From: a virus
Lineage: Duplodnaviria; Caudoviricetes
IMG/VR virus record: IMGVR_UViG_3300011226_000001
Location: 1-64,000 of that record
DNA: 64,000 bases
Reading direction: 5' to 3' (one strand)
The notes beneath the pieces are model-generated. The model was not told the origin of the DNA. It saw only the letters and a list, made by a program, of their open reading frames with translations, and did no database searches. Below are positions 1,982-61,903 of this stretch, piece after piece (the first letter of the stretch is position 1; each line of letters begins with the position of its first letter). The position numbers and the translations under genes were made by a program.

Positions 1982-1995
1982 TGGAGTGCGTGATT

Positions 1996-2292
1996 ATGTC
2001 TAAGGCTATTGAGATCGTGAGAAAATACTGGAAGGTTTTCGCATCTGTTATTGTGCTCGTCGTTATGGCGTTGTTGTTTCGTCGCCCTAAGACAAGCCCT
2101 TCAACTACCGCAGGTGAACAGAAAGCCGCTGACAATACGCGTGAAGCAGCAATCGAGAACCAAGTCCAAGACAGCAAGACTGTCAACGAGGCGGTGAAAG
2201 AACTGAACACGCGGAAGCCTGAGACTGACGTTAAGCCTCCGACCAAAGAAGACAGCATGGACGAGCTGGTGGACAGGTACAATAAGCTATGA
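1996..2292 (+). CDS. putative i-spanin (inner-membrane anchored)
   Basis: N-terminal TM (VFASVIVLVVMALLF) then a helical periplasmic region; ATGA-type overlap with the next gene. Confidence 0.55.
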   Translation: MSKAIEIVRKYWKVFASVIVLVVMALLFRRPKTSPSTTAGEQKAADNTREAAIENQVQDSKTVNEAVKELNTRKPETDVKPPTKEDSMDELVDRYNKL

Positions 2293-2753
2293 AAATAATC
2301 ACGTTACTCCTGTGCTTGCTAGTGACTGGTTGTAGTTCGTTGTCTGGCATCGAACCAACCAAGAAAACAACCATGCAAGACATTCAGCAGATCAATCGTG
2401 TTGAGTGGGAAAAGGAAGCCGTTCCTGCCAAGCCTCAAGTCGTTGTCAAAGTTGTAGACGAAAAAAAGGTTGCAGTGCTTGATAACAAGGGAATGGTTGA
2501 TTTGATCAATTTGTATGAGTCAGGCAAGACGCGCACCGAAGAACGAAACAAGTTACTCGATGTGTTGAACCTGACGATTGATGAACGCAACAAACTACTG
2601 CGTTTGGCTCAAGCCGAAGAGGTGAGGGCGAACGGACTATCCGATGACTTAGCGGCAGAGCGCAAGGCACGTATTGAAGATCAGAAGTCTGCCGATTTTC
2701 AATTGTGGTTGACGCGCATTGCAGCAGCTATCGGTATAGGTTTAGCGCTATAA
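2289..2753 (+). CDS. spanin lipoprotein (o-spanin/u-spanin-like)
   Basis: Lipobox LLVTG-C15, coiled-coil body, hydrophobic C-terminus. Confidence 0.6.
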   Translation: MKIITLLLCLLVTGCSSLSGIEPTKKTTMQDIQQINRVEWEKEAVPAKPQVVVKVVDEKKVAVLDNKGMVDLINLYESGKTRTEERNKLLDVLNLTIDERNKLLRLAQAEEVRANGLSDDLAAERKARIEDQKSADFQLWLTRIAAAIGIGLAL

Positions 2754-2755
2754 CG

Positions 2756-2793
2756 AAAAAAGGGCGACTCTCAATTACGAGGGCCGCCCTTTT
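2756..2793. terminator. bidirectional Rho-independent terminator
   Basis: AAAAAAGGGCG...CGCCCTTTT between convergent gene blocks. Confidence 0.8.
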
Positions 2794-2809
2794 CTATTTC
2801 TACAGCAGA

Positions 2810-3706
2810 TTACAGTTGATCGCGCAGCATCTGTGTCAGACTGTCGATGCGAATTACCAGATACTCCAGCATTTCGTCAACGCCACGCACAACATCGAGC
2901 TTGGACAGTTCACCGAAGCCTACGTTGATTTCACCGATTTCTTCTGGTGCTTCACCCAGCAGGCGATTACCTGTTTCGCTAATGTCAGCCTGAATATTGT
3001 TGTAGACAGTCACAATATCCAGAGCGAGCGCACGAATATCTTCATCCGCACGGTTGAGCAGTACGCCAGACTGGGCGCGAGATGCCATATCACCATCAGG
3101 GAATACTTGACCCATCAGGAACTGAGTCAGAGTGATGATCGGCGCGGCGTGCCAGCCCACAACTTTTAACGGAGCCTGAGTGCGTGATTCGAAGTACGCA
3201 GTGTGCATGTACTGGGCCATGCTACGAACATAGTCGTAAGCTGGAATCAGCGCACCTTCCTCACGAATGGTGCCAGCGCTGTCTTCGTTCTGTCCTTCAA
3301 ACAGATCGATGATGCGCGAACGCAGATCGGCAACACAGGCATTGTCAATCGCACCGAACTCGTACAACGCGATAGTCAGATGCGCAATGCTATCCATCAG
3401 ATTGACGGAGCGACGCGCGACACGCGGCCCAACAGGCACGTCTGTATCTGAGCCGCTTTCGAGTGACGGAGGAATGTGTGACAGTTCAACACCTACAGTA
3501 TCAACGTTCTGGAACGATGCGGTTTGGCCGCGGGCAGGACGAACCGCATCTTCGTTCAGTTTGCTGACACGTTTGACGTCCCACTCTTTGTGTGCTTGTT
3601 GTTCAGCATCGTTCAGGTAGCGACGCTTAAACTTACCCTTCTCGCCGCGCTCAACAATATACGGCAGACGGTCTTCATCGAATTTAACAGCAGCGAAATC
3701 GATCAT
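2810..3706 (-). CDS. hypothetical protein
   Basis: 298 aa ORF overlapping the upstream stop. Confidence 0.7.
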   Translation of the reverse strand: MIDFAAVKFDEDRLPYIVERGEKGKFKRRYLNDAEQQAHKEWDVKRVSKLNEDAVRPARGQTASFQNVDTVGVELSHIPPSLESGSDTDVPVGPRVARRSVNLMDSIAHLTIALYEFGAIDNACVADLRSRIIDLFEGQNEDSAGTIREEGALIPAYDYVRSMAQYMHTAYFESRTQAPLKVVGWHAAPIITLTQFLMGQVFPDGDMASRAQSGVLLNRADEDIRALALDIVTVYNNIQADISETGNRLLGEAPEEIGEINVGFGELSKLDVVRGVDEMLEYLVIRIDSLTQMLRDQL

Positions 3707-4410
3707 TCTGAAATAGCTCCCAGCAGGTTGATGGACAGGTCGGAGTTAACGCGATGCAGCGTCGTGACGGTATCGTCGATATGATCCGCCAGATTGCACA
3801 GGCAGTTGTGAACGCTGTCAACTACCTGAGAGGCGCGACAATCAACAGGACCTTCAACGCCGACCAGAGACAGGTTGATGCGATTAGCCATGCTCTGAAT
3901 ACTCAGCAGACGAGCGATAGCTGTCTGTGCGTCGCCGTAAACGCTGCGGCCGAATTGCGTTTTGTGAATAGCGCCTTGAACGTCTTTCTCTTCGTCGCAG
4001 TCTTCGCCTACCTCCTCTTCGTCGCTGCCGTGAACAGACTCAAACAGAACGTTATTGGCGAAACGCATTGCACTGTTCAGGTCTTCGTTGAGCACACGCA
4101 GCACGTTATCGTGCGCGCCTGATGCCAGATCCTCGCCTTTAGCAGGAGCAGGTTCGTACAGACCCAGACGCTGCAACGTATCGGCCAGAGTGGATGTGGC
4201 ATAGCGCAGGCTATCAGCTCGGCTGTAGAGTTGTGCAGCAAGTGACAGACCACCAGCCACTGGGCTACCTGCGGAAGACGCGGCAGAAGCTACGTGCGCA
4301 GAAGTTTGAGTACCGTTATATACGGGCGCAGTGACACGTTTACCAGCACCACCAGCTTTTGCTGATTTGCTTGAATTGTCCACAACACCGCCACGTTCTT
4401 TAGAAGCCAT
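3703..4410 (-). CDS. hypothetical protein
   Basis: 235 aa ORF with GAGGA RBS, downstream of an AATCTGTAAATA motif. Confidence 0.7.
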   Translation of the reverse strand: MASKERGGVVDNSSKSAKAGGAGKRVTAPVYNGTQTSAHVASAASSAGSPVAGGLSLAAQLYSRADSLRYATSTLADTLQRLGLYEPAPAKGEDLASGAHDNVLRVLNEDLNSAMRFANNVLFESVHGSDEEEVGEDCDEEKDVQGAIHKTQFGRSVYGDAQTAIARLLSIQSMANRINLSLVGVEGPVDCRASQVVDSVHNCLCNLADHIDDTVTTLHRVNSDLSINLLGAISE

Positions 4411-4468
4411 GCTTTGTTCCTCTTTTGATGATTGATAGTTAGTTTAGACAGATAACTTTAGCAGTTAG

Positions 4469-4480
4469 TATTTACAGATT
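4469..4480 (-). promoter_or_regulatory. recurrent AATCTGTAAATA motif (candidate phage promoter); exact copies also at 8505, 12903, 42437, 54810
   Basis: Exact 12-mer found 5 times, all on the - strand, mostly shortly upstream of gene starts. Confidence 0.6.
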
Positions 4481-5218
4481 TACTAACTTGCGATAGGCGC
4501 GAAAATGTTCTTGCGTCAAACCGTGATCCCACGGACGAGAGATGAACTTGAATACAGGGGTCATATCAAACAAGTCAGCCGCACAGACAGTGTAGTTGCG
4601 CTCAGGGTCTACCATGTTCACTTTACCGTTGCTGATCAGTAGACGAGCTTTGGCGTCTTTAGCAGTATCACCTGACGCATAGTAGCGCTCATACACAAGC
4701 GCAGAGATTTCCTGACGCATCTGCGTGGCGACATAGCCTTCGACGATACCCATGAAGTCACGCATATTCAGATTGTCGTCAATGCGAACTTCCCACGCAT
4801 CAGGCAGACGCAGATCAGTTTTACCTGTAGCTGTGTCGTGGTTAATCAAGAACGCACGGAGCTTACGCAACGGACCGTAGAACAGGTCTTGCTCCGCTTT
4901 GGACGTAAGCTCTTTGGCCAGTTCCTGATACGTGCTATTTGGATCAGCCATCATGTGACCGAACGTATACGCCAGAGGATGTCTGTTCTCATACGTATAC
5001 TTAGGCGTATAGGTCCAAGTACCGTTGAGTATATCAATACCCAACTCTTTGGTGTTACGCAGCAGCACACTGCTTTGCTTGTGCAAGTCGAGTGTGCTGT
5101 CCAGAATCTCAATGCTACCATCAAGAATCTGTTTGAAGATCAGATCACTGCTGTCCGGCAACGGGCTGCCGATGTTGATTTCCGCTAATGGACTCGCCAT
5201 GTACTTTACCTTCTGCAA
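4472..5218 (-). CDS. hypothetical protein
   Basis: Long ORF in the - strand gene run; start may be 5200. Confidence 0.65.
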   Translation of the reverse strand: MQKVKYMASPLAEINIGSPLPDSSDLIFKQILDGSIEILDSTLDLHKQSSVLLRNTKELGIDILNGTWTYTPKYTYENRHPLAYTFGHMMADPNSTYQELAKELTSKAEQDLFYGPLRKLRAFLINHDTATGKTDLRLPDAWEVRIDDNLNMRDFMGIVEGYVATQMRQEISALVYERYYASGDTAKDAKARLLISNGKVNMVDPERNYTVCAADLFDMTPVFKFISRPWDHGLTQEHFRAYRKLVNL

Positions 5219-5611
5219 CGAGTTTGTTAAGTTCAGTGCGCAGTCTACGACTCAATGACTTCGCTGTGTTGTACTTAGGAAGCAAGTCAGACATGCTATT
5301 TGCTTCTGTCCACGTCAAATGACGACGATAAATATCGTGACACATGCAGGCTATGCTTGTGCTGTGGATGAGGCGCTTGCCTAAGCGTTTAGGACCGTAG
5401 TAGATAGTTTCGACAACACCAACTGCTGTACCCTCTTTGAGATCAACCGTCAGCGTGTGTACGACTGTCTCCGTTGTTATCAACCAATCTTTCAACATTG
5501 TCACTCCCCTGAGCAAGGACAGCATCTACAACACTACTGATACATTCACCTGCTGGTGTCTTTTCATTATTAAGCACATCGAGAAAGACTCCCGTGCGCG
5601 TCGATACCACA

Positions 5612-5992
5612 TCAAGCGGATGCTGTTGTGGCAGAGATAGTGGATTTTTGGTCAACGAATTTCTTCTGCTTGTAATCCCAGCCGACTGCACGATAGAACG
5701 ACCAGAGGTCTTCGTGTATCTGCTTTGGAAGATTAATCCAAATAGGAGAATGACGTAGACGCATCATACGTCGGTCACTCTCCACCAGTTGTTCCCACTC
5801 AAACTTGCGTTTCAGCCAGAAGCGTTTGGCCGTAAGATCGCGAGCACAAATCAAACCCATACGCTTATCGAAAGCGCCCATGCTGACCAGCGCACGGTAA
5901 TCAGATTGCTGCGTGTCTGCTTCCGCCTTGAATACGTGAATACGAGTAGGAATATTGTTCGCGTATTCAATCGCATACATTTCGTGAATCAT
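5612..5992 (-). CDS. hypothetical protein
   Basis: 126 aa ORF with ATGA overlap. Confidence 0.6.
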   Translation of the reverse strand: MIHEMYAIEYANNIPTRIHVFKAEADTQQSDYRALVSMGAFDKRMGLICARDLTAKRFWLKRKFEWEQLVESDRRMMRLRHSPIWINLPKQIHEDLWSFYRAVGWDYKQKKFVDQKSTISATTASA

Positions 5993-15048: not shown

Positions 15049-17178
15049 TTATTTAAATATATCGCCTGGCTTTTTCTTTTTCTTCTTCGCGTAAGGCAAA
15101 AGAATATGTTCGATGAAAGCCTTCGATGCTGCGTGTGTCATTGCTGGCACACAGACACGACCAAGACGTTCCCACTGCTCCTCGAACTTACCGACCAGCT
15201 TGTAGTCAGACGGCATCCCAGAAACAACCAGCAGTTCGTCGATGGTCAATTTACGGCGATGACCTTTGTTGTCTTCGATAAACCCAGCAGACGAGAAACG
15301 CGCTGTTTCATACGCGATTGCATCAGACGCTGTAATCGTTGGCATCGGTCCGTTGATAGCAGGCAGATACTTGATCAGGTCTTTCTGCGTCGTCTTGTAT
15401 CGTAAGATGTGAGGCAACGCATCGCCCAGAAAGGCTTGCGTATCGCACGGGATAACATCAGGCACAGCGTCACGCGCATTCTTATAGCCAAGCGCATGTG
15501 CTACGTCTTTACGTACACCCATGAAGATGATACGTTCACGAGACTGAGGCACACCTAACCAACAAGCATTCAGCATCGGCGCTCGGACATAATACCCGAG
15601 TTTGTCGAACGTCTTCATGATCTCAAGGAAGTACCCTTTCGAGATTCCCTTCACAAGACCACTAACGTTCTCCGCCGTGAATACTTTCGGCATCATGCCT
15701 TGCAGCATACGACAATACTGATCGAACAGGTCATCTACCTGCTGATACTTATTGTCGCTGTACTTAACTTCTTTGCCCCAGCCTTCTTCTTTCACGCCAG
15801 CCGTCGAGAAGCCTTTGCAGTTGTGAACCACAGTACCATTAGCAACATACGTTTCATCGGTCTCAACCGAGAAGTTATACACGTCACACGTTGCCTGATA
15901 CGCAAGAGTCTCAACAACCACTGTCCAAAGATGCGGGTCTTCTTTGCTGAACTCGTGGAAGAAGTTGTGCTCTTCCTGCAAGAACAAGTACCCGATGTGC
16001 TCACGCGCACTTTGGCGATCACGCGGAGTTAACGAGCTGCCGAAGTAAACATCGCCCCAAATCAGACCGTCGAACAGTGGTCTGTTGAATGCGCTACAGC
16101 ACAGATAGTTAAGCTCAAGCAGGAAGCGTTTGCTGTTCGAAGCGATAGCGATACCAGTACCCATCGCAGTCACATAGTCCATGCCCGCACAACCGAGAAT
16201 GAATTGCTGTTTCAGCTCGACGCTCATGTGGAACATCATTGCAGGCAGACGTCGGGAGAACGTGTTGTTACCCTGACTGATAAAGCGGCGCAAGAACTGC
16301 ACCAGCTCCGCATCAATAACAGTACGGAACGTTTTGCGTTGCGCTGTTTTCACATCAATGCGATTCAGGCTACTGATTTTAAGCGCGTCAAACGCCTGCT
16401 CAATCATCGCGTTTTCAATGCTACTATGCGACTCAAAGCTAACGACTTCAATGCCACTAACTGTTTCGATTGAACCACGATCGCACCAGTGTCCTACCAT
16501 CCACCAGAACTCAGGAATACACACCCACTGTTGAATCATCTTCGGCAGTTGTGCAATCTGATTGTGATACACATCAGCAGGTAGATCAGGCGTAGTACGC
16601 GGCGTGCCGAGCAAGTCACCTTCTTGCACGTCTTTCGCATCACACCAGAACGGCTCAGAGTAACCACCAGACTCCAGCGGGCGACGAACGAAGAACGGAT
16701 GTTCAGGCGTAGCGTTGTTGCTGCTGATCATCGTTTCGATTTTGTGCATCGTACCGACATACGGTCTGACCATAGTGTCGTATACAGGGTAATACTGCCC
16801 GACACTGGTCATTGCTCTGTCGCCGACGTTCATGTCCGAGATGAACTTCATGCCGTCTGCTGTATGAATGATAGTGTCTTCGGTAAAGCATGGAGGACTA
16901 CCGTCAAGTAAATCAAGTTCGCCTTTATCCAGACCGCAATAGCGTAACAGCTTGCCCGGATCTAAACGGCGAATGTCATGAGGCAGCACTTTCGTTGTCG
17001 GGTGGTTAGCTTCGTATGACTCTCTTGCGGGGTCAACAAACTCGTTACTCAGCAAGATGTTGATACCGGCCATCTTGTGGCCGGTAGAAGAACCACCGCA
17101 ACCTGCGAAGAAACTCATACCACGCCAGGGTTTATCCAGCTTGTTGATTTCCTTCATCGTAGGCGGCTTGATGATCAT
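15049..17178 (-). CDS. C5-cytosine DNA methyltransferase-family enzyme with intein; predicted carboxymethyltransferase
   Basis: Motif I FFAGCGG, motif IV GSPP|C, motif VI ENV, motif VIII QSRER; motif X reads LGRVCVP instead of GNS/AV. Confidence 0.9.
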   Translation of the reverse strand: MIIKPPTMKEINKLDKPWRGMSFFAGCGGSSTGHKMAGINILLSNEFVDPARESYEANHPTTKVLPHDIRRLDPGKLLRYCGLDKGELDLLDGSPPCFTEDTIIHTADGMKFISDMNVGDRAMTSVGQYYPVYDTMVRPYVGTMHKIETMISSNNATPEHPFFVRRPLESGGYSEPFWCDAKDVQEGDLLGTPRTTPDLPADVYHNQIAQLPKMIQQWVCIPEFWWMVGHWCDRGSIETVSGIEVVSFESHSSIENAMIEQAFDALKISSLNRIDVKTAQRKTFRTVIDAELVQFLRRFISQGNNTFSRRLPAMMFHMSVELKQQFILGCAGMDYVTAMGTGIAIASNSKRFLLELNYLCCSAFNRPLFDGLIWGDVYFGSSLTPRDRQSAREHIGYLFLQEEHNFFHEFSKEDPHLWTVVVETLAYQATCDVYNFSVETDETYVANGTVVHNCKGFSTAGVKEEGWGKEVKYSDNKYQQVDDLFDQYCRMLQGMMPKVFTAENVSGLVKGISKGYFLEIMKTFDKLGYYVRAPMLNACWLGVPQSRERIIFMGVRKDVAHALGYKNARDAVPDVIPCDTQAFLGDALPHILRYKTTQKDLIKYLPAINGPMPTITASDAIAYETARFSSAGFIEDNKGHRRKLTIDELLVVSGMPSDYKLVGKFEEQWERLGRVCVPAMTHAASKAFIEHILLPYAKKKKKKPGDIFK
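15820..16890 (-). mobile_element. cis intein (357 aa) with degenerate LAGLIDADG domain, inserted before the catalytic Cys
   Basis: Starts CFTEDT, block B ATPEHPF, ends VYNFSVETDETYVANGTVVHN, +1 Cys; splicing restores SPPCKGFS. Confidence 0.92.
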
Positions 17179-17179
17179 A

Positions 17180-17884
17180 TTATCCCTCGAACTTAAATCC
17201 ACAGCGCGGGCAGGTGCAGTTCAGAGTATCGCCAACATCATCAGCGCTGTACTCATTGAACTTACCGGTACTACCGTTCATCTGGCCGGTAGTCTTGCCA
17301 GCACGTTTGTCGTCTACAACAACAGCCTGACTTTTCAGCTTTTGTTGCAGACCGCGAATCTCTAACGGGTCAAGCCCCAGCAACTGAGGTTTGATTGTAT
17401 TGAGATCGAGTTTTTCCACCAGCTTGGCGAGCTTCTTGTTATCGAACTCACCGCCGTGGGCGTTCGCTGCGATGTTCGCTGCGTACTCTGCTTTCTTATC
17501 GGTCCAGTTCACGATACGCAGAGGAATGCTGATCACTTTATCAGACTTCTTCGGATGCGTTGCGTGGATGTAGCCCAGAGCGATAGTACCGTGCTTATCA
17601 ACGGTCTTCTGGATCTCGATACGAGTCTTCCAACCGTCAATAGATTTCAGACGCTGGTGGCCTGAGATCAACACGCCAGATTTGACGTTGTTATTGAACA
17701 CGATACCAGACAAGTCACCGAAGCTACCCAGAGAGCCTTCGAGCGCTTTCAGGCGACTGTCTGTAATGAAGCGCGGGTTGTATTCAGCGCCTTTCAGTTG
17801 AGCGACTGAGTTGAGTTTCTTGAGATCAAACTTCAACCCGTCTTTCTTTTTTCCGTCCTTTGTTTTGATAGCAGTTTTTGCCAT
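17180..17884 (-). CDS. ParB/Srx-like domain protein with C-terminal Cys motif
   Basis: YNPR, LISGHQRL, CPRCG; such proteins often sit directly upstream of phage DNA-modification methylases. Confidence 0.7.
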   Translation of the reverse strand: MAKTAIKTKDGKKKDGLKFDLKKLNSVAQLKGAEYNPRFITDSRLKALEGSLGSFGDLSGIVFNNNVKSGVLISGHQRLKSIDGWKTRIEIQKTVDKHGTIALGYIHATHPKKSDKVISIPLRIVNWTDKKAEYAANIAANAHGGEFDNKKLAKLVEKLDLNTIKPQLLGLDPLEIRGLQQKLKSQAVVVDDKRAGKTTGQMNGSTGKFNEYSADDVGDTLNCTCPRCGFKFEG

Positions 17885-44896: not shown

Positions 44897-47725
44897 TTAT
44901 TTCCGGCCAATCATTCGAGTACGAGCACTACCAAGAACACGACCACTAGGCAGAGCAACGCGCGAGCTACTAGCAGTGCCTGAGTTGAGTCGATGCGCTA
45001 CGCGACCCAAGCGATTCGGGTCACGGTTGATTGATACTTCTGGTGCTTTCGTCAGATACTCGTCGTACTCGCCACACTCGAAGCCATACACCATGAGTGC
45101 CATTGCTCGCCACAGGTCATCGGTTGCCCCTGTGTTCTTGATTACGCTGCGGCCTGTATCTTGCACAGTCTGCAATTGCATGATCAAGTGCTCTGTTGGT
45201 TTGTTCTCGAAGCACTGAGGATATTCGTCACCGTCGTATTTCAACGTGTCAGCAATCTTGTCAGCGTGAGTCATTCGCGGTAGACTAATGCGTGACGGCG
45301 TTGATTCGAACATCGTCTTAACTGTCCACATGTCCTGATACTTCAAGCTGTACTGGTCGGACTCCTCGATGGAATCCACTTTCAGTTTCGCATCCTGCAA
45401 CAACTTGAGTGACTGCCACTGGTCAGCAAGCATTACGCGAACGTTACGCGCTTTGCACAGCGGAATAAGCAGTTCATCAAATATCAAGGTGTAGTTCAGA
45501 GGGATGCCTGGCTTCGGTACGATCTCAACAAGACAATCGACACTGATAATCCCTGCATCGTCGCGTGAGCCTGTAACGAGTGCGAAGCTGTTGTTCGAGA
45601 AGCCTGCGTCAATTGCAAGTATCGACGCTTTGGTTGTCGTTGCCGCTTTGACGAGACTGCCATAGCGCTGGCGTTCACCGTCTTTGTGTCGAATGATGTG
45701 ATGGGCATATGTACACATCGAACGACCTTTCTCACGTATTGCATCCTGAATGAAGGTTGGTTGCGTGATGAATGGGTTAGCAGACAACGGTGCTTCTGCT
45801 CCGTAATCTCGGGCTGCACCTACCGGGTCACGACGAAACGCTTCTACAAGGAACTCAGAGGTACGCGGCATTGTCGGGTTCATCTTCCACGTAGGAGCAT
45901 GAATACCGAGCAGCTTCTCAGAGCCTACTGACATACGAAGCAATTCGTTAATCTTATCACGGGCGTGAACCGGACTACTGATGTTACAGAAATATCCCGT
46001 GAATGCTTCATCATAACCGGATTCGACTTGCCGCATCTCGGCAGAACGAACAGTTGCGAGTGAACGGTCAAGTGCACCGTAGACTGCACCAGCACTGACT
46101 TTGATCTTCTTGGATTGGGCGTCGTTGTCGAAATACGCCACTTCGTCGATTACCGCCAGTACGCGGGTTCGACCACGAAGAATACGACCATCAGGTCCGG
46201 CAGGGTAGATAACGAAGTTCCTGTGTCCGTACAGTACGAACGTGTCACGAATCTTCATCACTTCGATGCCGTAACGGCGCTCGTGTTTGCGAATCAAATC
46301 GTGATAGGCTTGGAACCACGGACTACCCATGATGTAGTTGAAGTACGGAGTCCACAATGTATCAGACGCTTGCTTCTGGGTAAGCGCAACGAACGTACCG
46401 TGCAATACGGTTGTGCTGTCGATGCCCAAGATACCAGTAGGCGACTGCGACATAAGCAGTCTGTGCGTCAGATAGGTAGAGATCATCGCTACTACAACTG
46501 ACTTACCGCTGTTGTGATGCAGAATGCCTGACGCAACGAATTGAGGCAGACCTTCCATCTGCAAGTCATACGTGACCTGCGGAGTACCGTCATCAACGGA
46601 CATTACTTCGATGTGAATCGAACGACACTGAGGCTGCTCAGTCAAGTCATAGACTAAGCTCCACATGCGCGTACCGTGAACGATTTGCGGCAAGTGTCCT
46701 GCGTTGATCAGAATCGACCACACCATTTGAAGTGCGTCAACATCATCGGTAACGTACTGCATCTTTTCGCCCAGAGGCACACTGCGTTCAGCGATATAAC
46801 GCAGCGCTTCTTCACGCGTAGACAGACCAGCATCATAGATACTTACAGGACGCTGTATCTTGCCCCATGAGTTCGTACCGAGTTTGACTTCGATACGCTC
46901 ACCGCCGCGCAGCTTCGACACTTTCTTAAAGCCTTGCTCAGTACGCACAGGGTGCTCATGAGTTGCTTCAATCCACATACCGTTTGCGAGCGTGACGACT
47001 TTGGTAGGCGCTACGTCTGACACATAGACTTGACTGACGTTCTTGATCTCACGGCCGTTGTGCGCGTTGAAGTTACGCTGCGGCTTGTGGAACCCAGGCA
47101 CATCATGACCAATCATCATGTGACCGATAGGCATAACACCACGAGAGGTCAGCACAGGAGTTGAGGCAATCACACAACGCTGTCCGGCGTTCACCGCCAG
47201 TTCGTTGTAGAAGTTCATCTCTTTCTTGCGAATCATCTCAGAACGACGAGAGCCGCAATGGGGGCACACACCATTGTGAAGCAGGTGTAAATGTGTCTCT
47301 ATTGCGGCTGTCGTTTCTTGAGGCTCGTGGTTTTCAGTGTACATCCATTGCAAGTTTGGTGAGCACTTAACGCAGATCTCACCAAACAAGCGCAGACCAA
47401 TCATGGCCTGTTCGAGATAAGGGTCGGCTTTTAAGAAGTCAGGACTCGTACACCACTCAAGGAAATTCTTGGCGCGTGGCATCGCACTATCATCAAACTT
47501 CAAATCGCGTGGCACAAGTGTGCGCTGCTCTAAAGCCCCTTCAACGAGATCGACAATGTTGACCTCGCCCTTTTCGAGAAAGTTAATCCCACTCGAACTA
47601 TTATCCGACAAGAAATCCATATCGGATGAGGCATCCGCCTGAACGTCATCACCAAGTAGTGCATCGAATGCAGCTATTCGCTTAGGACGTATCGTGAATG
47701 CTGGGCCCTTTTTAGGCTTGGCCAT
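44897..47725 (-). CDS. terL: terminase large subunit with intein
   Basis: Walker A GQR|SGKS after splicing, RGRT..VIDEVA Walker B, ISS, nuclease AIDAG and DDL. Confidence 0.9.
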   Translation of the reverse strand: MAKPKKGPAFTIRPKRIAAFDALLGDDVQADASSDMDFLSDNSSSGINFLEKGEVNIVDLVEGALEQRTLVPRDLKFDDSAMPRAKNFLEWCTSPDFLKADPYLEQAMIGLRLFGEICVKCSPNLQWMYTENHEPQETTAAIETHLHLLHNGVCPHCGSRRSEMIRKKEMNFYNELAVNAGQRCVIASTPVLTSRGVMPIGHMMIGHDVPGFHKPQRNFNAHNGREIKNVSQVYVSDVAPTKVVTLANGMWIEATHEHPVRTEQGFKKVSKLRGGERIEVKLGTNSWGKIQRPVSIYDAGLSTREEALRYIAERSVPLGEKMQYVTDDVDALQMVWSILINAGHLPQIVHGTRMWSLVYDLTEQPQCRSIHIEVMSVDDGTPQVTYDLQMEGLPQFVASGILHHNSGKSVVVAMISTYLTHRLLMSQSPTGILGIDSTTVLHGTFVALTQKQASDTLWTPYFNYIMGSPWFQAYHDLIRKHERRYGIEVMKIRDTFVLYGHRNFVIYPAGPDGRILRGRTRVLAVIDEVAYFDNDAQSKKIKVSAGAVYGALDRSLATVRSAEMRQVESGYDEAFTGYFCNISSPVHARDKINELLRMSVGSEKLLGIHAPTWKMNPTMPRTSEFLVEAFRRDPVGAARDYGAEAPLSANPFITQPTFIQDAIREKGRSMCTYAHHIIRHKDGERQRYGSLVKAATTTKASILAIDAGFSNNSFALVTGSRDDAGIISVDCLVEIVPKPGIPLNYTLIFDELLIPLCKARNVRVMLADQWQSLKLLQDAKLKVDSIEESDQYSLKYQDMWTVKTMFESTPSRISLPRMTHADKIADTLKYDGDEYPQCFENKPTEHLIMQLQTVQDTGRSVIKNTGATDDLWRAMALMVYGFECGEYDEYLTKAPEVSINRDPNRLGRVAHRLNSGTASSSRVALPSGRVLGSARTRMIGRK
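46511..47176 (-). mobile_element. cis intein (222 aa) in the terminase Walker A
   Basis: Starts CVIASTPV, block B ATHEHPV, ends TYDL...FVASGILHHN, +1 Ser. Confidence 0.9.
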
Positions 47726-54823: not shown

Positions 54824-56479
54824 TCAAAGACTTACCGGCAGCTTGTCGTCAGGTGATTTCAGATAAGCCTTAACTTTCGCGGCAGTACCATTAGCAGCAT
54901 ACTTGCCTGGCTCTTTCAGACCACATTTATACTCTGCAATCTCGGCCTTGATTTCTTTAATCTTGGCGACGAGTCCTGCACGTTCGAGTTTAGCCAGCTT
55001 ACGCACTTGACGGTCGAGAATGATCTTCGCATCGTCAACAGGAATCTTGCAGGCTTTCGCAAGAGCAGCATCAGGGTCTGCGGCTACCAGCACTTTAGGC
55101 AGCGCTTTGAGTAACTTGTCCATGTTGTCTACTGCCCACAAGTAAACCTCTTGCAGATGTAGGGCTTTCTCTGCTTTGGCCATCTTGTTTTTGAGCATCG
55201 CTATTTCTAGCTTAATGCGATACGCAACCCACGCTTTGAAGTAGTTCACATACGACAGATACATAAACTTGTTCGAGGCATCAGCACGGCGAACTGTCAC
55301 ACCCAGCGAGTAGTTGATCGCGGAGGTAACTTCACGCTGCACCTTAGTTGCGAGTTCATACAGCACATCGTCACTACCACGACACTTGATAGCGAACGCT
55401 GCGCCCCACGGACCGGCATCTTTGTTCTTCTTCGAGCTGGCGTTTGACGCAGACACAACACCAGGCCACTCTGCAATCTTCTCCAGCTTCTTGGTGATAG
55501 TTGCGTTGTTAGACATACCGCCTGGCACATACGTTTGAATCGTGATCGTCTTCGTCTTCTCGTCGATCTTCATCTGCGGTTCGTATGTGACTTTACCGCG
55601 GCCTGTAGACATGAGCGCGAGGAAGTCTTCATCAGAGCTTACGTCGAGACAGCCATACTCATGATTGACTTTGAGCGTGTCCGCGAGTTTCTTCGCGCTG
55701 TACTCTTTGCCATTGAGCATATCACACACGACTTTCGCAACTGACGTAAAGCTGAACGATGGGTTACCGCACTTAACGCCGTACGCAGGCGCTGGCACAC
55801 TACCGTTGAACAACATGTACGGTAACAGTGCAGGCAGATACAGAGGTATCTTCATATCGTTCGAGAAGTTGTCCACCATCGGTGTTACTTCGAGATAGTC
55901 AGGGTCGAGCAAGAAGCTACCCGCGAACTTACTCATTTTCGCTTCGGTATAACGCATCGCAGCAGCAGGCGCTACAGGGTCACCCCAGTTACCTTGACCC
56001 GCTACAGCAGGAGGCACTGTGTTTGCAATCGTTACCATCGCACCGTAGCAAGCAGCATCGCCGTGTGGGTGATACTTACCTAACGCATCACCAACAGTAC
56101 GCGCAGCTTTCTTGAAAGCACCGCCAGGGCGTAACCCCAAGTCTGACAGCGACCAGAGTAATGCACGGTGAACGGGCTTGAGGCCGTCACGATAGTCAGC
56201 GATAGCACGGTCCTCAACAACGTATGAACCGTACTGGAAGAGAGCGCGTCGCGTGTAGTCAGCAAGGTTCTCGTCACGAATGAGGGACTCGTCTTGACCA
56301 ATCATCGGGTACAGCGAAGTACCTGTAGCAGTCTCAACTACTTCGCCTTTCTTCTTTTTCTTTTTCGGCAAGTCATCGGCAGCTACTGCTTTCGATTTTG
56401 ACTTCAACTTAACCTTTGCAGGTTTCGCTACCGCAGTCGATTTCTTTTCGACTTTAACTTTCTTCGGCTTAACTGCCAT
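54824..56479 (-). CDS. gyrA: type IIA topoisomerase subunit A (GyrA/ParC-like, no CTD pinwheel)
   Basis: DGLKPVHR, GKYHPHGD, AAAMRYTE. Confidence 0.93.
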   Translation of the reverse strand: MAVKPKKVKVEKKSTAVAKPAKVKLKSKSKAVAADDLPKKKKKKGEVVETATGTSLYPMIGQDESLIRDENLADYTRRALFQYGSYVVEDRAIADYRDGLKPVHRALLWSLSDLGLRPGGAFKKAARTVGDALGKYHPHGDAACYGAMVTIANTVPPAVAGQGNWGDPVAPAAAMRYTEAKMSKFAGSFLLDPDYLEVTPMVDNFSNDMKIPLYLPALLPYMLFNGSVPAPAYGVKCGNPSFSFTSVAKVVCDMLNGKEYSAKKLADTLKVNHEYGCLDVSSDEDFLALMSTGRGKVTYEPQMKIDEKTKTITIQTYVPGGMSNNATITKKLEKIAEWPGVVSASNASSKKNKDAGPWGAAFAIKCRGSDDVLYELATKVQREVTSAINYSLGVTVRRADASNKFMYLSYVNYFKAWVAYRIKLEIAMLKNKMAKAEKALHLQEVYLWAVDNMDKLLKALPKVLVAADPDAALAKACKIPVDDAKIILDRQVRKLAKLERAGLVAKIKEIKAEIAEYKCGLKEPGKYAANGTAAKVKAYLKSPDDKLPVSL

Positions 56480-56480
56480 G

Positions 56481-57230
56481 TTATTCCTCCAGACCCAGCA
56501 GACGACGACGATGGACTGCATCTTCTGCAAGTACACCTCGGAAGAAACGCTCCTGCTCAACGCTAGTGAACGGGTTCACGCGAATCAAGCGGCGAGTCTT
56601 CGGATTGAATGAGATCGCTTCGAGCACGTCAGGTTCAACTTCACCCCAACCTTTTGCACGAACGATTTCTTTATCTTTTACAGCAGCAGGAGCTTTCGCT
56701 CGGCATTCTTCAAATGTCATGCCACCGTAGTGAATGCCTTTGTGCATCACGTTATACAGAGGCGCATCGACGATCCACACACGACCCTCTTTCATCAGGT
56801 CAGGCAGCAGTCGATAGATAACGCCGAGGAACAACGTTGCGATGTGGAATCCATCAGGGTCAGCATCCATCAGGAACAACAGGTTGCCGATACGCAGATT
56901 CTTCGTGCTCAACTTCGGCGCTTCTGCTTTCGGGTCTAACGATTTCAGGTCAGCACCCACAGACACTAACATGCCCTGCACTTCTTTGTGCTTGAGTACG
57001 TCAGCGAGACTTGCTTTCAGACCGTTAAGCGGCTTACCACCAGCGAGCATAACTTCCTGATAGTCAGGGTTACGTGCGTGTTTGGCCGTGTTATGCACAA
57101 CGACGCCATTACCTAGCACGAAGTTATGATGCACAGGCATAGTCGCATCGTACACGGGAACTGGTGTGTCTAACTTCACGCGACGGACAGCTTTAACTGT
57201 CAAATTCGTCGTAGTAGAAGATGATTCCAT
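56481..57230 (-). CDS. gyrB: split-intein C fragment (47 aa, 57090-57230) fused to the GyrB C-terminal (TOPRIM) part
   Basis: AAGGAG RBS; VYDAT..HNFVLGNGVVVHN|TAKHARN; GKPLN, MDADPDG.HI, KGWGE. Confidence 0.9.
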   Translation of the reverse strand: MESSSTTTNLTVKAVRRVKLDTPVPVYDATMPVHHNFVLGNGVVVHNTAKHARNPDYQEVMLAGGKPLNGLKASLADVLKHKEVQGMLVSVGADLKSLDPKAEAPKLSTKNLRIGNLLFLMDADPDGFHIATLFLGVIYRLLPDLMKEGRVWIVDAPLYNVMHKGIHYGGMTFEECRAKAPAAVKDKEIVRAKGWGEVEPDVLEAISFNPKTRRLIRVNPFTSVEQERFFRGVLAEDAVHRRRLLGLEE

Positions 57231-57279
57231 TTTAGCTGTCTCCTTCGACAACAATGATAATTTAATCACATCAGAATCA

Positions 57280-57441
57280 TTAGTCAGGATTCTGGTTTTG
57301 TTCGTTCATGCGCTCGTTTTCTTCACGCTCGCGTTCATCTTCTTCCTCCTGACGCTCACGATATACTCGTTTGTCAGGGTCTTCGATAGATGGTGATTTG
57401 GTGCTGTCAGTATCGACGCTTAACGAAACATAAATCTTCAT
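57280..57441 (-). CDS. 53-aa charged peptide (not in ORF track)
   Basis: AAGGA RBS, CTGTAAATA motif upstream; MKIYVSLS...ERQEEEDEREREENER. Confidence 0.55.
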   Translation of the reverse strand: MKIYVSLSVDTDSTKSPSIEDPDKRVYRERQEEEDEREREENERMNEQNQNPD

Positions 57442-57468
57442 AGCTATTCCTTATTTACAGAGGTCTGT

Positions 57469-58677
57469 ATGAGCCTAATAAAAGCACACAAACGCTTGAG
57501 CAAGAAGTTTAGCAAAGAGTTCAAATCCCTAATGCCAATCTTCTTTGAGCAACGCGACAAGAAACAATGCAACGCACTTGTACGCGACTCATACCCAAAA
57601 CTGTTTGACGCTATCGAACAGGCAACAGGTTGCACTGTCTTTAAATTAGACCCAGCAGCGTTTCACACCTTACTTACTGGTGAGGTTGCTGCACAGTGCC
57701 ACAATAAAGGTTGCACGAATATGTGTGGCTACGATAAAGGCAAACGCAAGTACAAAGAGTTTTGCTCCAAGCAATGTGCCAACGCTAGCGGTGCTATCAA
57801 AGAACGGCGCGAAGCAACAATGCTCAAAAAGTACGGCGTTAAAAATGCGTATGCGGCACCAGAGATTCAAGCTAAGATTGCAAGCAAGAATATCGAGAAG
57901 TACGGAACAGCCAACGCATCGTCAAGCGACAAGGTAAAGCAGAAGCGCCGCAAGACTTTTCAAAAACGCTACGGCATCAATTCTCCTATGGAGAGTTCAG
58001 AGTTTCGTGGACGTCTGAAAGATTCCATACGTACTCGCTACGGTGTAGACAACGTAGCACAAAGTCCTGTAGTTCAAGCGAAGACAGAAGCAACGTGTAT
58101 TGAACGTTACGGTGTCTCTCGCGTTATGCACGACCCTGAGATCGCAGCGTACACACATAAGCGGTCAGTAGAAGGCAGCATGATGAAGTACGGTGTACCG
58201 AATGCGATGCTTCATCCAGACGTGCTAGCCAGGTGGCAAGACTCTCTGGGACGCAGAACTGAAATGACAATCTGCGGCAAGACAGTCTACGTTCAGGGCT
58301 ATGAGCGTTTCGTATTCGAACGTCTGCACCAACTCAAACCGTTTAAATCAATTACCACTCGTATGCCGCAGTCAGCAATGGTGCCTTATACTTTCAAAGG
58401 CAAGCAACGCAGATATGTTCCTGACGCTGCAATCAAACTGCCTGACGGCTCAGTACGCGTGGTCGAGGTAAAGAGCTGGTTCACGCTACGCAACGAAGCA
58501 AACGTAGAGAAGTTTAAGGCGGCAACCAAACACTTCAACGCTCGTGGTATAGACTTCGTAGTTATCATAGCGGAACCAGAATACGATTACATTCGCGTAA
58601 TAGTTAACCCGAAGAAAGGGCTCAAGTCACTTGTACGCACGGCACATCTTTTCAGTAGTGGCCGTCGAACTTGGTAA
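57469..58677 (+). CDS. free-standing putative homing endonuclease (KYG repeats plus PD-(D/E)XK domain)
   Basis: Zn motif, about six (K/R)YG(V/T/I) repeats, YVPD...VEVK; opposite strand inside the fractured gyrB. Confidence 0.75.
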   Translation: MSLIKAHKRLSKKFSKEFKSLMPIFFEQRDKKQCNALVRDSYPKLFDAIEQATGCTVFKLDPAAFHTLLTGEVAAQCHNKGCTNMCGYDKGKRKYKEFCSKQCANASGAIKERREATMLKKYGVKNAYAAPEIQAKIASKNIEKYGTANASSSDKVKQKRRKTFQKRYGINSPMESSEFRGRLKDSIRTRYGVDNVAQSPVVQAKTEATCIERYGVSRVMHDPEIAAYTHKRSVEGSMMKYGVPNAMLHPDVLARWQDSLGRRTEMTICGKTVYVQGYERFVFERLHQLKPFKSITTRMPQSAMVPYTFKGKQRRYVPDAAIKLPDGSVRVVEVKSWFTLRNEANVEKFKAATKHFNARGIDFVVIIAEPEYDYIRVIVNPKKGLKSLVRTAHLFSSGRRTW

Positions 58678-60391
58678 GCTGATCACCTGGCTGTAGGTCG
58701 GCGGCTGCAACATAGCGGCTGCCGTCTACTAACCACGGATGGTCTAACGTACATACATAAACAGTACCGTCAGACATTTCAACTTCCACCAGCTCGTCAA
58801 CATATTTGGTCAGACGCGGCTCGTCAAACACATGACGCTCGAACGACTGCTTTTCAATGTTGAAACTAATCCCTTCAAATACTTCACCCTGCTTTGTGCG
58901 CTCGGCAAGTTCTTCGAATGAGAAGACGCTACCATCTGCCAATCGAACAGGCGTGGTACCAATGAAACAACCACCAGCAGAGTCGCCTTCTACAACGATA
59001 AGCTCACGCTCATGAGGCTTACACTTGAGCGCAGAGATCAGGTCAGCAGGGAGTGAGTTGCCTTTCAGCTTCTTCTTCGTGTCTGCCATTGACTTAACAA
59101 CAGCGGACAGTTCTTCACGCCCCTTGTTCATCGCTTCGGCGCGTTTGATGATCGTCGTTGCGACTTTCTTATTGTCCTTGAAGTATTTCACGAATGCTTC
59201 TTTCAGCATCTCGTATACTTCTTTCTCAACACGACTCGCCAGCTTGTCTTTAACCTGTGAGGTGTATTGAGCGCCGTGCATACGCCAGTCGAACATACCT
59301 GTCAGGCCGATAAGCAAATCTTCTTGTTTGAAGTTCTGCTTCTTCTTGCCTTTGCCTTTCGATTCTTTCATGAAAGGTTTGATTGCTTCGAACAGCGCGT
59401 CACGGAAACCTACAACGTGCCACCCGCCGTCAATTGTCGGGCTGGTGTTAACGAAACTGAGGAAGTTGTCAGTGTCAGGATGATCTGTCCACGTCAGCGC
59501 AGCGGTGATGTTGTCGTTCTTGAAGATGAACGGTTTGCCAACTGAACCGAGTTCGCGTTCTTCAACCATCGTCTTAACAACGTGCGCGAGATCTTTCTTG
59601 TTATGGAAAGTGAACTCTTTGCGCTTGCCTTTCTTGATCAACGTCAGGCGAACTTCGAGGCCCGGGTTGAGCATAGACATGTTACGCAGCCAGCGGCCTA
59701 AATGATCAGGAAGCGGAGCGGCGTGACGATAGTTCTTCGGCAGCTTCTTACCACGCATAACGTCAGCAGACACAACAGTCTGGTCGAGCGTCCACGCAAC
59801 AATCGTACCATACTTGGTGTGCTTCTTATCTTTTAAGAGAGCCATAACATCTTTATCGACGCCTTTGACTTTCTTAGGGTCTTTACCAGATTGGGCTTCA
59901 CCTTTCTGCCACATCTGATACGCACAACCGCCTTTATACATTGACCAGACACGAAGTTGGTCAGACACTGCGTTCAATGCTGCAACGCCTACACCGTGAG
60001 TACCAGCAGAGGTCTTATATGCTTTATCATCGAACTTACCGCCGGCGTGTGTGCGACTGAACGCTGCGGTCATGATCGTTTCTTTGGTGCCGTTCTTCAA
60101 TTTCTTGAAGTCTGTCGGGATACCACCAGCATGGTCAGCTACAACGTTCAGGTCGTTGTCGTAGTCGATGACAACTTCGATGACTTTGTTCCTGTTGGCG
60201 ATGTACTCGTCATAGGCGTTATCCACCGCCTCTTTGACTGTACGGTATGCCATATCAGTACCGCGTTCACCTAAGTACATCCCTGGGTTGGCACGAAGTC
60301 CCGATAGGCCTTCATGAATGACGAAGCCTTCCTGCTCACCGCCGTCACCCGTTTTCTTTTTAACTTTTGCAGCTTTTGGCGTCTTAGCCAT
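58652..60391 (-). CDS. gyrB: GyrB N-terminal part (GHKL ATPase) fused to the split-intein N fragment (105 aa, 58652-58969)
   Basis: PGMYLG, EAVDNAYDE, HAGGKF, GTHGVG, VEGDSAGG|CFIGTTPV...CTLDHPW. Confidence 0.92.
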   Translation of the reverse strand: MAKTPKAAKVKKKTGDGGEQEGFVIHEGLSGLRANPGMYLGERGTDMAYRTVKEAVDNAYDEYIANRNKVIEVVIDYDNDLNVVADHAGGIPTDFKKLKNGTKETIMTAAFSRTHAGGKFDDKAYKTSAGTHGVGVAALNAVSDQLRVWSMYKGGCAYQMWQKGEAQSGKDPKKVKGVDKDVMALLKDKKHTKYGTIVAWTLDQTVVSADVMRGKKLPKNYRHAAPLPDHLGRWLRNMSMLNPGLEVRLTLIKKGKRKEFTFHNKKDLAHVVKTMVEERELGSVGKPFIFKNDNITAALTWTDHPDTDNFLSFVNTSPTIDGGWHVVGFRDALFEAIKPFMKESKGKGKKKQNFKQEDLLIGLTGMFDWRMHGAQYTSQVKDKLASRVEKEVYEMLKEAFVKYFKDNKKVATTIIKRAEAMNKGREELSAVVKSMADTKKKLKGNSLPADLISALKCKPHERELIVVEGDSAGGCFIGTTPVRLADGSVFSFEELAERTKQGEVFEGISFNIEKQSFERHVFDEPRLTKYVDELVEVEMSDGTVYVCTLDHPWLVDGSRYVAAADLQPGDQLTKFDGHY

Positions 60392-60421
60392 TGTAAGTTT
60401 CTCCGAATGAAAACACGATTG

Positions 60422-61420
60422 TTATTTACACTTACGTTTGTCGTAGGCGTCAACAATCTGTTCAACCGTATACTTGCCGTAATAGTCGTCAAATATATCG
60501 CCATGCTTTTTCTCAAACGCTGCAATGCGCTTGAGCAAGTCGTCCAACTCAATATGATTCATACTGTGCTTAATCATATTAGTTCTTGCAGCCATCAATT
60601 TCAAATTGCACGGATGACAAATAACAGACAGAGCTACAGGCTGCTTGCGCGGCACATAGTCTTTTCCGTTGAACTCGTAATAACCGTTCGTCTTCGAGAA
60701 CTGATGATCAAGATGAATGTCTTTCGACTCACCAGACAACCATCTGTCTATACGATGCGTACCCTCAGGGAACAAGTGTGGGAAACGCGATACCACCATG
60801 TACGTGAAGCGGTGAACGATTCGTTTGTATTGAACGAACGTTATACCGCACAGGCTTCGGTCTAAGTTATTCTCCCATGCTTGAATCGCAGTCTTTGAGA
60901 AAAGGATTGTACCTTTCTTTATCTTGTGGCGTCTACCATGCTTCGTTGCTTCGGCTATCGCTTCTGCATGGGTCCGTCGTTCAATGCCGACTGACTCAAA
61001 GTAACGAGACAGCATACAGGTCTTAAACGGAAGCCCTGTCTTCTCACGTATGACCTCTGCTATTGAGCTTCTGGTCATTCCCTTATCCTGATACATGCTC
61101 ACCAGCAATGAGTGGTTCTTCGCACAAAACGCATTGGCGTCTTCGTCACTCATAGTCTTTTTCTTTCGTGTCAGAGAAAACGCGTTAAGAGCTTTCTGCA
61201 CCGACGAGTGAGGTATACCTGTCTTCTCGGTAATCCCTCTAAGAGTCAATTGCTGGTCAACATACAGTTCAGTGAGCAACTGGCGCAAGGCTTTATTCTG
61301 CACCAGTGCCCATCCACCGTTTGTCTGTTTCTTGTAGGTTAGACCTTTCTTTTTGAGAATGTCGCCCACATTACCTACAGACCTCGGAATTGCAACATAC
61401 ATAAAACACCCCGAATACAT
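60422..61420 (-). CDS. putative HNH-type homing endonuclease with HTH domains
   Basis: HTH-like LY...LTLRGI repeats; HLDH...HPCNL...N..K. Confidence 0.55.
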   Translation of the reverse strand: MYSGCFMYVAIPRSVGNVGDILKKKGLTYKKQTNGGWALVQNKALRQLLTELYVDQQLTLRGITEKTGIPHSSVQKALNAFSLTRKKKTMSDEDANAFCAKNHSLLVSMYQDKGMTRSSIAEVIREKTGLPFKTCMLSRYFESVGIERRTHAEAIAEATKHGRRHKIKKGTILFSKTAIQAWENNLDRSLCGITFVQYKRIVHRFTYMVVSRFPHLFPEGTHRIDRWLSGESKDIHLDHQFSKTNGYYEFNGKDYVPRKQPVALSVICHPCNLKLMAARTNMIKHSMNHIELDDLLKRIAAFEKKHGDIFDDYYGKYTVEQIVDAYDKRKCK

Positions 61421-61564
61421 CGTCTGAAATACATACTATAAATTAGTGTATTTTGGCTTTTGTACACGGGTTTTCTCTACAGCTATTATATCACACTTTA
61501 GTATTAGACGCTACCCTCGTTCTGTCCAACAATATGCAGAGTTCGAGTTAAGTCAACTATAGGG

Positions 61565-61903
61565 CTATTCTTCGTTTCGTGTCAGACTGCGGTACTCTGC
61601 GTACACGTCAGCGTCTTGACGTAGTGGGTATTCAGCTTGCATACCACCAGCAACCCAGTCTTCAACTAGTTTGGTTATCGTGCCATAGCGAACCAGTTCA
61701 TCGCCTGTCAGGCCCTCTAACAGTTTGGTTGGCATCAGACTTTCTTTGTTGACGAGATCGCACATCATAGCCTGATGGCTTGTGCTGAAACTGACAATGC
61801 ACAGGTAGCGATCAGAGATCGGCAGAACGCGAAACAGTTGCTCACGGATTGTTTCCATGAGATTGAAGTAGCGGTGGATTTGTTCAGACAGTTTCTGAGC
61901 CAT
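61565..61903 (-). CDS. hypothetical protein
   Basis: GGAG RBS before MAQKL. Confidence 0.55.
   Translation of the reverse strand: MAQKLSEQIHRYFNLMETIREQLFRVLPISDRYLCIVSFSTSHQAMMCDLVNKESLMPTKLLEGLTGDELVRYGTITKLVEDWVAGGMQAEYPLRQDADVYAEYRSLTRNEE

Follow-up and report, generated by a model that had tools for sequence, protein, structure and literature searches.

How could a phage make a whole type II topoisomerase from a large-subunit gene that is broken into two open reading frames (ORFs) with a gene on the opposite strand between them? The window, by which we mean the whole stretch of 64,000 nucleotides analyzed here (positions 1 to 64,000 of IMG/VR record IMGVR_UViG_3300011226_000001), makes up the first 64 kb of a virus record that is complete at 268,224 bp and has direct terminal repeats; among named phages, its closest relatives are jumbo phages of the genus Alexandravirus, from Erwinia and Dickeya. 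At 56,481–60,391 of this window, an earlier note made from the letters alone had described a gyrB gene fractured by a naturally split intein around an opposite-strand endonuclease. From the sequence, it is very probable that trans-splicing restores the topoisomerase subunit and that the nuclease drives the spread of a composite element made up of the intein and the nuclease gene. The parts of the locus, read along the minus strand of the host gene, are as follows.

58970..60391, minus strand: N-extein, residues 1–474 of the topoisomerase II large subunit, with the GHKL ATPase, the transducer and the first Toprim motif up to EGDSAGG (PF02518, PF00204).
58652..58969, minus strand: IntN, the N-terminal intein half, 105 codons (CFIGT...CTLDH...DGHY) followed by a TGA stop at 58654..58652 (TIGR01445 and an alignment of relatives).
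57469..58677, plus strand: free-standing homing-endonuclease-like gene of 402 amino acids (aa), with a Cys4 finger, about five KYG repeats (DUF7487) and a C-terminal TnsA-like PD-(D/E)xK domain.
57240..57245, minus strand: ribosome-binding site AAGGAG, with 9 nt between it and the ATG of IntC, read from the sequence.
57090..57230, minus strand: IntC, the C-terminal intein half, 47 codons (M...VKAVRRVKL...VPVYDATMPVHHNF...VVHN; TIGR01443 and conserved core).
56481..57089, minus strand: C-extein, residues 475–676 of the spliced protein, with Thr+1 (TAKHARN), the remaining Toprim with DADPDG, the GyrB C-terminal domain and a TAA stop (PF00986, PF01751).

The N-half ORF (60391..58652) encodes 579 aa, with residues 1–474 belonging to the extein and residues 475–579 to IntN, and the C-half ORF encodes 249 aa, opening at the ATG at 57230 with IntC as its first 47 residues and continuing into TAKHARN. 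This anatomy agrees with the earlier note, which had described a GyrB-type ORF ending in EGDSAGG and then a 105-aa acidic IntN with Cys1, TLDH and a stop, and about 1.4 kb further on an ORF with AAGGAG and a 47-aa IntC (KAVRRVK...VVHN) before TAKHARN. IntN has a net charge of -11 and an isoelectric point of 4.5, and the distance from its stop to the IntC ATG is 1,421 nt. The endonuclease gene that the note placed on the plus strand in this gap does overlap IntN, with its last 26 nt lying tail to tail over the end of the IntN ORF; as the topoisomerase gene is on the minus strand, the note's terms “opposite-strand” and “+ strand” are both correct.

Evidence on where the gene was broken comes from relatives in which it is intact, a comparison that the note had proposed. 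The 675-aa orthologue gp331 of Erwinia phage pEa_SNUABM_1 reads EGDSAGG|TAKHARNPDYQEV without interruption at the insertion point. In an alignment to gp331 the two window halves meet at that bond, and nothing but the intein parts is inserted between them, so that the break is exact to the residue and the halves rebuild the gp331 junction exactly. The predicted spliced product is 676 aa long and has the same junction as intact orthologues. Alexandraviruses in GenBank have an empty site and a gene that reads through it; their matches to the 4.1-kb query (84–89% nucleotide identity) cover the host-gene parts only, leaving about half of it without a counterpart. The C-extein is about 99% identical in protein sequence to the orthologue of the intein-less pEa_SNUABM_1, and within 20 nt of the junction there are only three silent differences (GGC/GGT, ACG/ACT, GCC/GCG).

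The exteins together make up a complete ATPase subunit of a type IIA topoisomerase, with the GHKL, transducer, Toprim (EGDS and DADPDG) and C-terminal domains distributed across the two halves. The phage “DNA topoisomerase II large subunit” family phrog_543 matches the N-half over model positions 9–452 (E 2e-97) and the C-half over positions 448–635, covering both together from end to end, and PF01751 reaches just 19.9 bits in the C-half, under its cut-off, because the Toprim domain is split. The host protein is therefore the large subunit of a phage topoisomerase II (GyrB/T4 gp39 type) and not cellular gyrase B; the name gyrB used by the note holds as regards a GyrB-type subunit and fails as regards the cellular enzyme. 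The +1 residue is Thr, as the note had it, and this is the native residue of phage topoisomerase II at the insertion site, where cells have Ser. As a separate observation, the host gene is a mosaic relative to pEa_SNUABM_1 (58970–60391 against L001, L002), with nucleotide identity of 89–99% on both sides of the insertion site, upstream for about 720 nt and downstream for 540 nt, and of just 71–80% in its 5' third.

Sequence features of the insert point to a class-1 intein with all catalytic positions present (Cys1, TxxH, HN, Thr+1). Cys1, which is Cys475 of the N-half, directly follows EGDSAGG, and block B reads C-T-L-D-H-P-W. The break in the intein falls between motifs N4/B and C2/F, with each intein half fused to one half of the host protein. 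In an alignment of 16 IntN relatives at 43–97% identity, Cys1, the block B T and H and about 20 further positions are invariant. Eight sequences, among them P0149–152, L004, L005 and the contiguous P0007, conserve the IntC core and VHN|T (VVHN|T in the window). IntC scores 24.9 bits against TIGR01443 (cut-off 15.6) and IntN scores 23.8 bits against TIGR01445, 0.7 bit short of the 24.5-bit cut-off. Chance resemblance is excluded by the TIGR01443 match above cut-off, the TIGR01445 match near cut-off and the recurrence of the layout in independent assemblies. The net charge of IntC is +1, or +2 over its conserved 35-aa core, complementary to the -11 of IntN. The nearest solved inteins gave just marginal matches (Pho RadA, E 0.01; NrdJ-1, E 0.02), and by these comparisons the predicted intein is far in sequence from characterized split inteins. 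A PF14890 match running from IntC through a TGA into 57309–57416 was rejected as an alignment extension, the translation there having multiple stops and no intein motifs.

The gene in the gap encodes a predicted nuclease of modular build. It matches PF24308 (DUF7487) with an E-value of 9e-37 and PF08722, the TnsA-like endonuclease N-terminal domain, with 37.4 bits (cut-off 26.5), and it is matched by phrog_3339 and phrog_12131, both annotated “homing endonuclease”. Residues C77, C82, C99, C103, E279, D319 and E333-V-K335 are invariant across 20 homologues, and KYG-x-N helical units are repeated. In the AlphaFold (AF2) model, which has a mean pLDDT (predicted local distance difference test score) of 88.7, residues 245–376 have TnsA as their top structural match (Z 8.8, root-mean-square deviation 4.0 over 125 residues), followed by archaeal Hjc and tRNA-splicing endonucleases at Z 6–7 and by I-Ssp6803I and I-Bth0305I at Z 5.1 each. 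A PDB sequence search returned nothing significant and no match to I-Ssp6803I or I-Bth0305I, Foldseek gave weak E-values for the multi-domain model, and a Pfam search found no match to GIY-YIG, Vsr or DUF559. Because of the invariant motif E...PD...ExK, and because the fold matches TnsA at Z 8.8 versus I-Bth0305I at Z 5.1, the protein is predicted to be a TnsA-like PD-(D/E)xK enzyme outside the GIY-YIG and Vsr-like EDxHD families. Distant DUF7487 proteins have the same repeats joined to other nuclease domains, e.g., Vsr or DUF559, and cultured phages hold relatives of the repeat region only, e.g., the LIMEstone-type “F-LimVIII”.

The same arrangement occurs elsewhere. Two divergent IMG/VR viral contigs, L004 (286 kb) and L005 (47 kb), found by a profile scan of IMG/VR, carry the three genes in matching orientations, with IntN 57% and 51% identical to that of the window, respectively. 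In each of them the nuclease gene is inverted and runs over the 3' end of IntN (L004, 15 nt; L005, 12 nt), and an inverted nuclease with convergent overlap is, in the predicted genes of these loci, a conserved feature of the layout. A single-protein pattern scan of IMG/VR detected no close IntN relatives, and a scan of JGI metagenomes added just a duplicate of L005 and some contiguous inteins of cellular GyrB; the nearest relatives, P0001–P0006, derive from sources other than these. Among protein clusters at 90% identity there are 13 N-halves (544–588 aa, ending in IntN) and 14 full-length nucleases (401–402 aa), along with 4 further C-half clusters of 246–249 aa that start at the same Met. 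Six pairs of clusters are tied by the identical size of their longest contigs (P0004/P0030, P0005/P0031, P0006/P0034, P0014/P0040, P0011/P0152 and P0032/P0151). An exhaustive search of representatives at 50% identity yielded 22 proteins of 526–588 aa whose IntN match ends at most 17 residues from the C-terminus, and 8 longer representatives likewise end in IntN. All ten of the IntN-ending representatives that were sampled (8 from the group of 22, 2 from the longer ones) are GyrB-type N-halves, two of them with an extra intein in the ATPase domain.

Related phages differ in what they carry at this site, which is empty in Alexandravirus isolates and otherwise filled by a contiguous mini-intein or by the split form. 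The contiguous form is that of the closest host gene with an intein: in P0007 (830 aa, encoded on a 98-kb contig) the N-extein is 81% identical to that of the window and the mini-intein 62% identical, with a linker of about 12 aa in place of the window's stop, nuclease gene and new start. Contiguous inteins are also found in cellular GyrB at EGDSAGG|S (P0019–P0026), at 26–40% identity to the window IntN. A further form was noted in three metagenomic N-halves (P0008, P0009, P0017), in which IntN runs in frame into an HNH domain and the proteins end at homologous positions without IntC, so that here a split of the intein beyond the nuclease domain is possible; an additional contiguous HNH-containing intein lies in the ATPase domain of both P0008 and P0009. 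A search for DNA of these IntN-HNH forms using P0017 retrieved intein-less relatives only.

The histories of intein and extein are discordant in the trees of their sequences. P0001 has an IntN 97% identical to the window's and an N-extein just 48% identical. The extein tree groups the window with the intein-less Alexandraviruses (support 100/98) and then with P0007, leaving P0001 outside an 11-row clade, while the IntN tree shows P0001 and the window as nearly identical. An approximately unbiased (AU) test on the exteins rejects a clade of window and P0001 (log-likelihood difference 41.7, p 2.6e-5). Nuclease and IntN identities across linked pairs are 92/97, 66/77, 65/77, 50/62 and 40/55%; as nuclease identity tracks IntN identity, intein and nuclease travel together. 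No clear imported flanking tract was evident as a sign of homing, the 5' third of the gene being less similar to intein-less relatives than the flanks are.

These observations suggest how the locus may work. The large-subunit gene is, in this reading, fractured by a composite selfish element: a class-1 intein occupies the Toprim site EGDSAGG|T, and a reversed free-standing gene for a PD-(D/E)xK homing endonuclease breaks into this intein between blocks B and F, at the canonical endonuclease-insertion loop. Two polypeptides would be translated, the 579-aa N-extein plus IntN and the 249-aa IntC plus C-extein, and the acidic IntN and a basic strand of IntC would associate into a HINT fold. Cys1 would then start an N-S acyl shift, Thr+1 would attack in the transesterification and the terminal Asn would cyclize, releasing a 676-aa product able to pair with the GyrA-like subunit encoded just downstream. 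The endonuclease would cut element-free alleles, with the result that intein and nuclease gene are copied in together.

Several points weigh against this account. PF14890 stays under the Pfam gathering cut-off on either half alone (23.1 versus 35.8 bits for the C-half), as is expected for half-domains; the net charge of IntC is weakly positive; and Thr+1 generally gives slower splicing than Cys or Ser in characterized inteins. In addition, the clade of window and P0001 submitted to the AU test was chosen after the identities had been seen. One could also suppose that the halves assemble without splicing, the intein halves acting as association domains in a non-covalent three-chain enzyme like T4 gp39/gp60/gp52 or the Aeh1 NrdA halves. 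The same subunit in T4 does tolerate a break in Toprim, about 70 aa downstream of the window's site, and a fragmented phage NrdA is reported to assemble via interaction domains that a mobile element left behind (PMC3045599). Binding alone, however, would not require Cys1, T..H, HN and Thr+1 to be invariant in inteins that have diverged to about 45% identity, and an unspliced 152-aa intein complex would sit in the EGDSAGG catalytic loop of Toprim; we consider such an assembly improbable.

A little less probable again is a decaying pseudogene, in which insertion of the nuclease gene killed both intein and host gene and the phage relies on the gyrase or topoisomerase IV of its host. Selfish-element insertions can inactivate genes, and many phages have no topoisomerase of their own. 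Here, though, both halves are full-length open frames without frameshifts, the C-extein is nearly identical to that of an intein-less relative (about 99% in protein), and the GyrA-like gene downstream is intact. Recurrence of the layout is a strong argument against decay, as the split is kept in lineages whose exteins are just 35–66% identical, which requires long-term purifying selection on both halves. Very improbable indeed is the remaining set of explanations, namely an assembly or chimera artefact, joining at the RNA level through an intron, or translational bypass. The record does come from a collection of metagenome-derived viruses and T4 gene 60, in the same subunit, is translated by bypass, but the layout recurs in independent assemblies of several sources, which rules out an assembly artefact. 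Against RNA joining or bypass, Rfam gave no intron match at the locus, what lies between the halves is a gene of the other strand, the IntN frame closes with a stop codon, and IntC is preceded by a ribosome-binding site of its own and opens with an ATG that gene callers also chose in four other assemblies. Restoration of the subunit by trans-splicing remains the reading that we favor.

As to how the split arose, the nuclease gene is inverted, and therefore the split cannot be a simple cut of a bifunctional intein; it points to invasion of a mini-intein by a free-standing nuclease gene. In its most far-reaching version, this would be a series within one lineage from empty site to mini-intein to split intein, with the PD-(D/E)xK gene invading the mini-intein backwards and the convergent overlap locking nuclease and IntN as one mobile unit. 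It would have given a so far untapped family (at least 22 clusters at 50% identity) of Cys1/Thr+1 split inteins that trans-splice efficiently and are orthogonal to tools of the DnaE and gp41 types. This extension is tentative; it is possible, and we would somewhat doubt that it holds in all of its parts.

The fractured-gene layout itself has precedents. As the note stated, it is known for gp41, NrdJ and IMPDH, which are listed in Dassa et al. 2009 (PMC2677866) among fractured genes from marine metagenomes: gp41-1, gp41-8, NrdJ-1, IMPDH-1, NrdA-2, DnaE, ligase and TerL, with no gyrase or topoisomerase among the eight host types. The window shares with those loci a phage DNA-metabolism gene broken into two co-oriented ORFs in their original order at one locus, with intact orthologues elsewhere, an intein split between B/N4 and F/C2, and a free-standing endonuclease gene in the gap that overlaps the ORF of one intein half. 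Whereas their nuclease genes point the same way as the host gene and extend over the 5' end of the IntC gene, that of the window is inverted and its 3' end overlaps the 3' end of IntN. Their nucleases belong to the GIY-YIG or Vsr-like EDxHD families, in contrast to the TnsA-like PD-(D/E)xK type with DUF7487 repeats predicted here; the host of the window's intein is also a different protein, the large subunit of topoisomerase II, the +1 residue is Thr, and IntN is marginally similar to NrdJ-1 (E 0.02). The note was aware of no GyrB example, and our search of the literature, confined to open-access sources, likewise found no natural split intein in GyrB or another gyrase or topoisomerase II, contiguous ones at the same site being known. 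The locus is thus a variant of a known layout that differs in host protein, nuclease family, orientation and overlap, and it is apparently undescribed.

Contiguous GyrB inteins of bacteria and archaea, e.g., Ssp GyrB, share the Toprim site, Cys1, the terminal HN and 26–40% IntN identity (P0019–P0026) with the window; they are single-chain (mini- or endonuclease-containing) and have Ser+1, whereas the window's intein belongs to a phage enzyme, is split by nature and is followed by Thr+1. The Ssp GyrB mini-intein has been split only artificially, for engineering (PMC11766414 table). With the cyanobacterial split DnaE inteins (Ssp, Npu), which have about 102–123 + 36 aa, an acidic IntN and a basic IntC (same table), the window's intein shares the natural canonical split and the charge pattern, but the DnaE halves are encoded at distant places without an intervening nuclease, have Cys+1 and belong to a cellular host, and the window differs in each of these respects. 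The mobA cassette of T4 likewise broke the same subunit in Toprim by insertion of a homing endonuclease (gp39/gp60), with intact versions in relatives. In T4, by contrast, there is no intein and the chains stay separate, the break lies further downstream, between EGDSA and DxDxD, the HNH nuclease is on the same strand, and a translational bypass in gene 60 comes on top. With the EDxHD enzymes I-Ssp6803I and I-Bth0305I the modeled nuclease core shares a restriction-endonuclease-like fold, and its domain order is that of I-Bth0305I, an N-terminal DNA-binding region before a C-terminal nuclease; its motif is E...PD...ExK and not EDxHD, and a Cys4 finger with KYG repeats stands in place of NUMOD/helix-turn-helix modules.

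A second inverted arrangement was found in Vibrio phage vB_VcorM_GR11A (MT366761, L027), where a split intein breaks up a DECH-box helicase gene (1476–5655). This locus shares with the window a middle ORF on the opposite strand whose 3' end overlaps that of IntN, here by 35 nt, and differs in its helicase host, in the HNH-like character of the 271-aa middle ORF (phrog_559) and in Cys+1. Fractured genes with an inverted nuclease are hence, as far as the predicted ORFs of GR11A indicate, not unique to a topoisomerase host. The record annotates the N-half (GR11A_00006) and the middle ORF (00005) as “hypothetical protein” and the C-half (00004) as “helicase ATP-binding domain-containing protein”. 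We know of no publication describing this helicase locus. The N-half of the helicase also holds a contiguous intein.

If trans-splicing does take place, a type II topoisomerase joins the short list of proteins made by natural trans-splicing. The layout is common, occurring in dozens of divergent phage lineages, with at least 22 metagenomic protein clusters at 50% identity, and such halves are now annotated “DNA gyrase subunit B” or “hypothetical protein”. The presence of empty-site, mini-intein and split forms in close phages tests the 2009 gene-breaking model for the origin of split inteins. Many divergent split-intein pairs with Cys1 and Thr+1 could be drawn from the family and screened for speed and orthogonality, in line with the note's suggestion of a new orthogonal split intein for protein engineering. 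The nuclease represents an uncharacterized modular architecture (Cys4 finger, KYG repeats, TnsA-like core), and its target site may be long.

The insertion also contains candidate expression signals for the C-half, between the nuclease gene and IntC.

57452..57460, minus strand: CTGTAAATA, a promoter-like motif that points at a 53-aa ORF and the C-half and lies in a 27-nt divergent spacer.
57280..57441, minus strand: acidic 53-aa ORF with an AAGGA ribosome-binding site and a highly acidic C-terminal half; its status as a gene is uncertain.

The motif CTGTAAATA occurs in 8 copies in the window, all on the minus strand (4477, 8513, 12911, 30030, 39778, 42445, 54818 and 57460), versus 0.46 expected, an approximately 17-fold excess, and seven of the eight are followed by an ORF start 10–79 nt downstream. 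As a candidate phage promoter, the motif recalls the T4 late TATAAATA. Together with the ribosome-binding site, the copy brought in by the insertion could serve the C-half, and its presence parallels the regulatory sequences that came along with the endonuclease in the loci of Dassa et al. 2009 (PMC2677866). Family searches with the 53-aa ORF gave no match or homologue; the ORF is absent from L004 and L005, where the corresponding gap is just 52 nt and 12 nt, respectively, and it is specific to the window's lineage of the insertion. Scans for sigma-70 promoters and intrinsic terminators gave counts no higher than the shuffled expectation, and an Rfam search of 56000–61600 at E up to 1 detected no family match and no RNA intron.

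Two genes flank the fractured gene.

54824..56479, minus strand: topoisomerase II small subunit (GyrA/ParC/gp52-like), intact (PF00521, E 9e-57; phrog_551, E 3e-106).
60422..61420, minus strand: second free-standing HNH-like endonuclease-type gene, directly upstream of the N-half and outside the intein (phrog_8446, HNH endonuclease, E 1e-7).

The small-subunit ATG starts 1 nt past the stop of the C-half. The upstream HNH-like ORF is homologous to an ORF in the same position in L004 (2834–3703, plus strand; 32% identity, E 2e-32), and pEa_SNUABM_1 has an unrelated gene there; the HNH-like ORF may be a second selfish nuclease tied to the same host gene.

Two other ORFs of the window carry inteins as well. 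One, a terminase-large-subunit-like ORF of 942 aa at 44897–47725 on the minus strand, has a contiguous intein at Walker A (NAGQR|CVIAST...GILHHN|SGKS), with a weak PF14890 match (E 3e-4). The other is a C5 cytosine DNA methyltransferase at 15049–17202, also on the minus strand (PF00145, E 2e-36), with an intein of about 355 aa at catalytic motif IV (GSPP|CFTEDT...TVVHN|CKGFS); given this location, the +1 Cys would be the catalytic cysteine of the enzyme. There are thus three inteins in 64 kb of this phage, in topoisomerase, terminase-like and methyltransferase genes.

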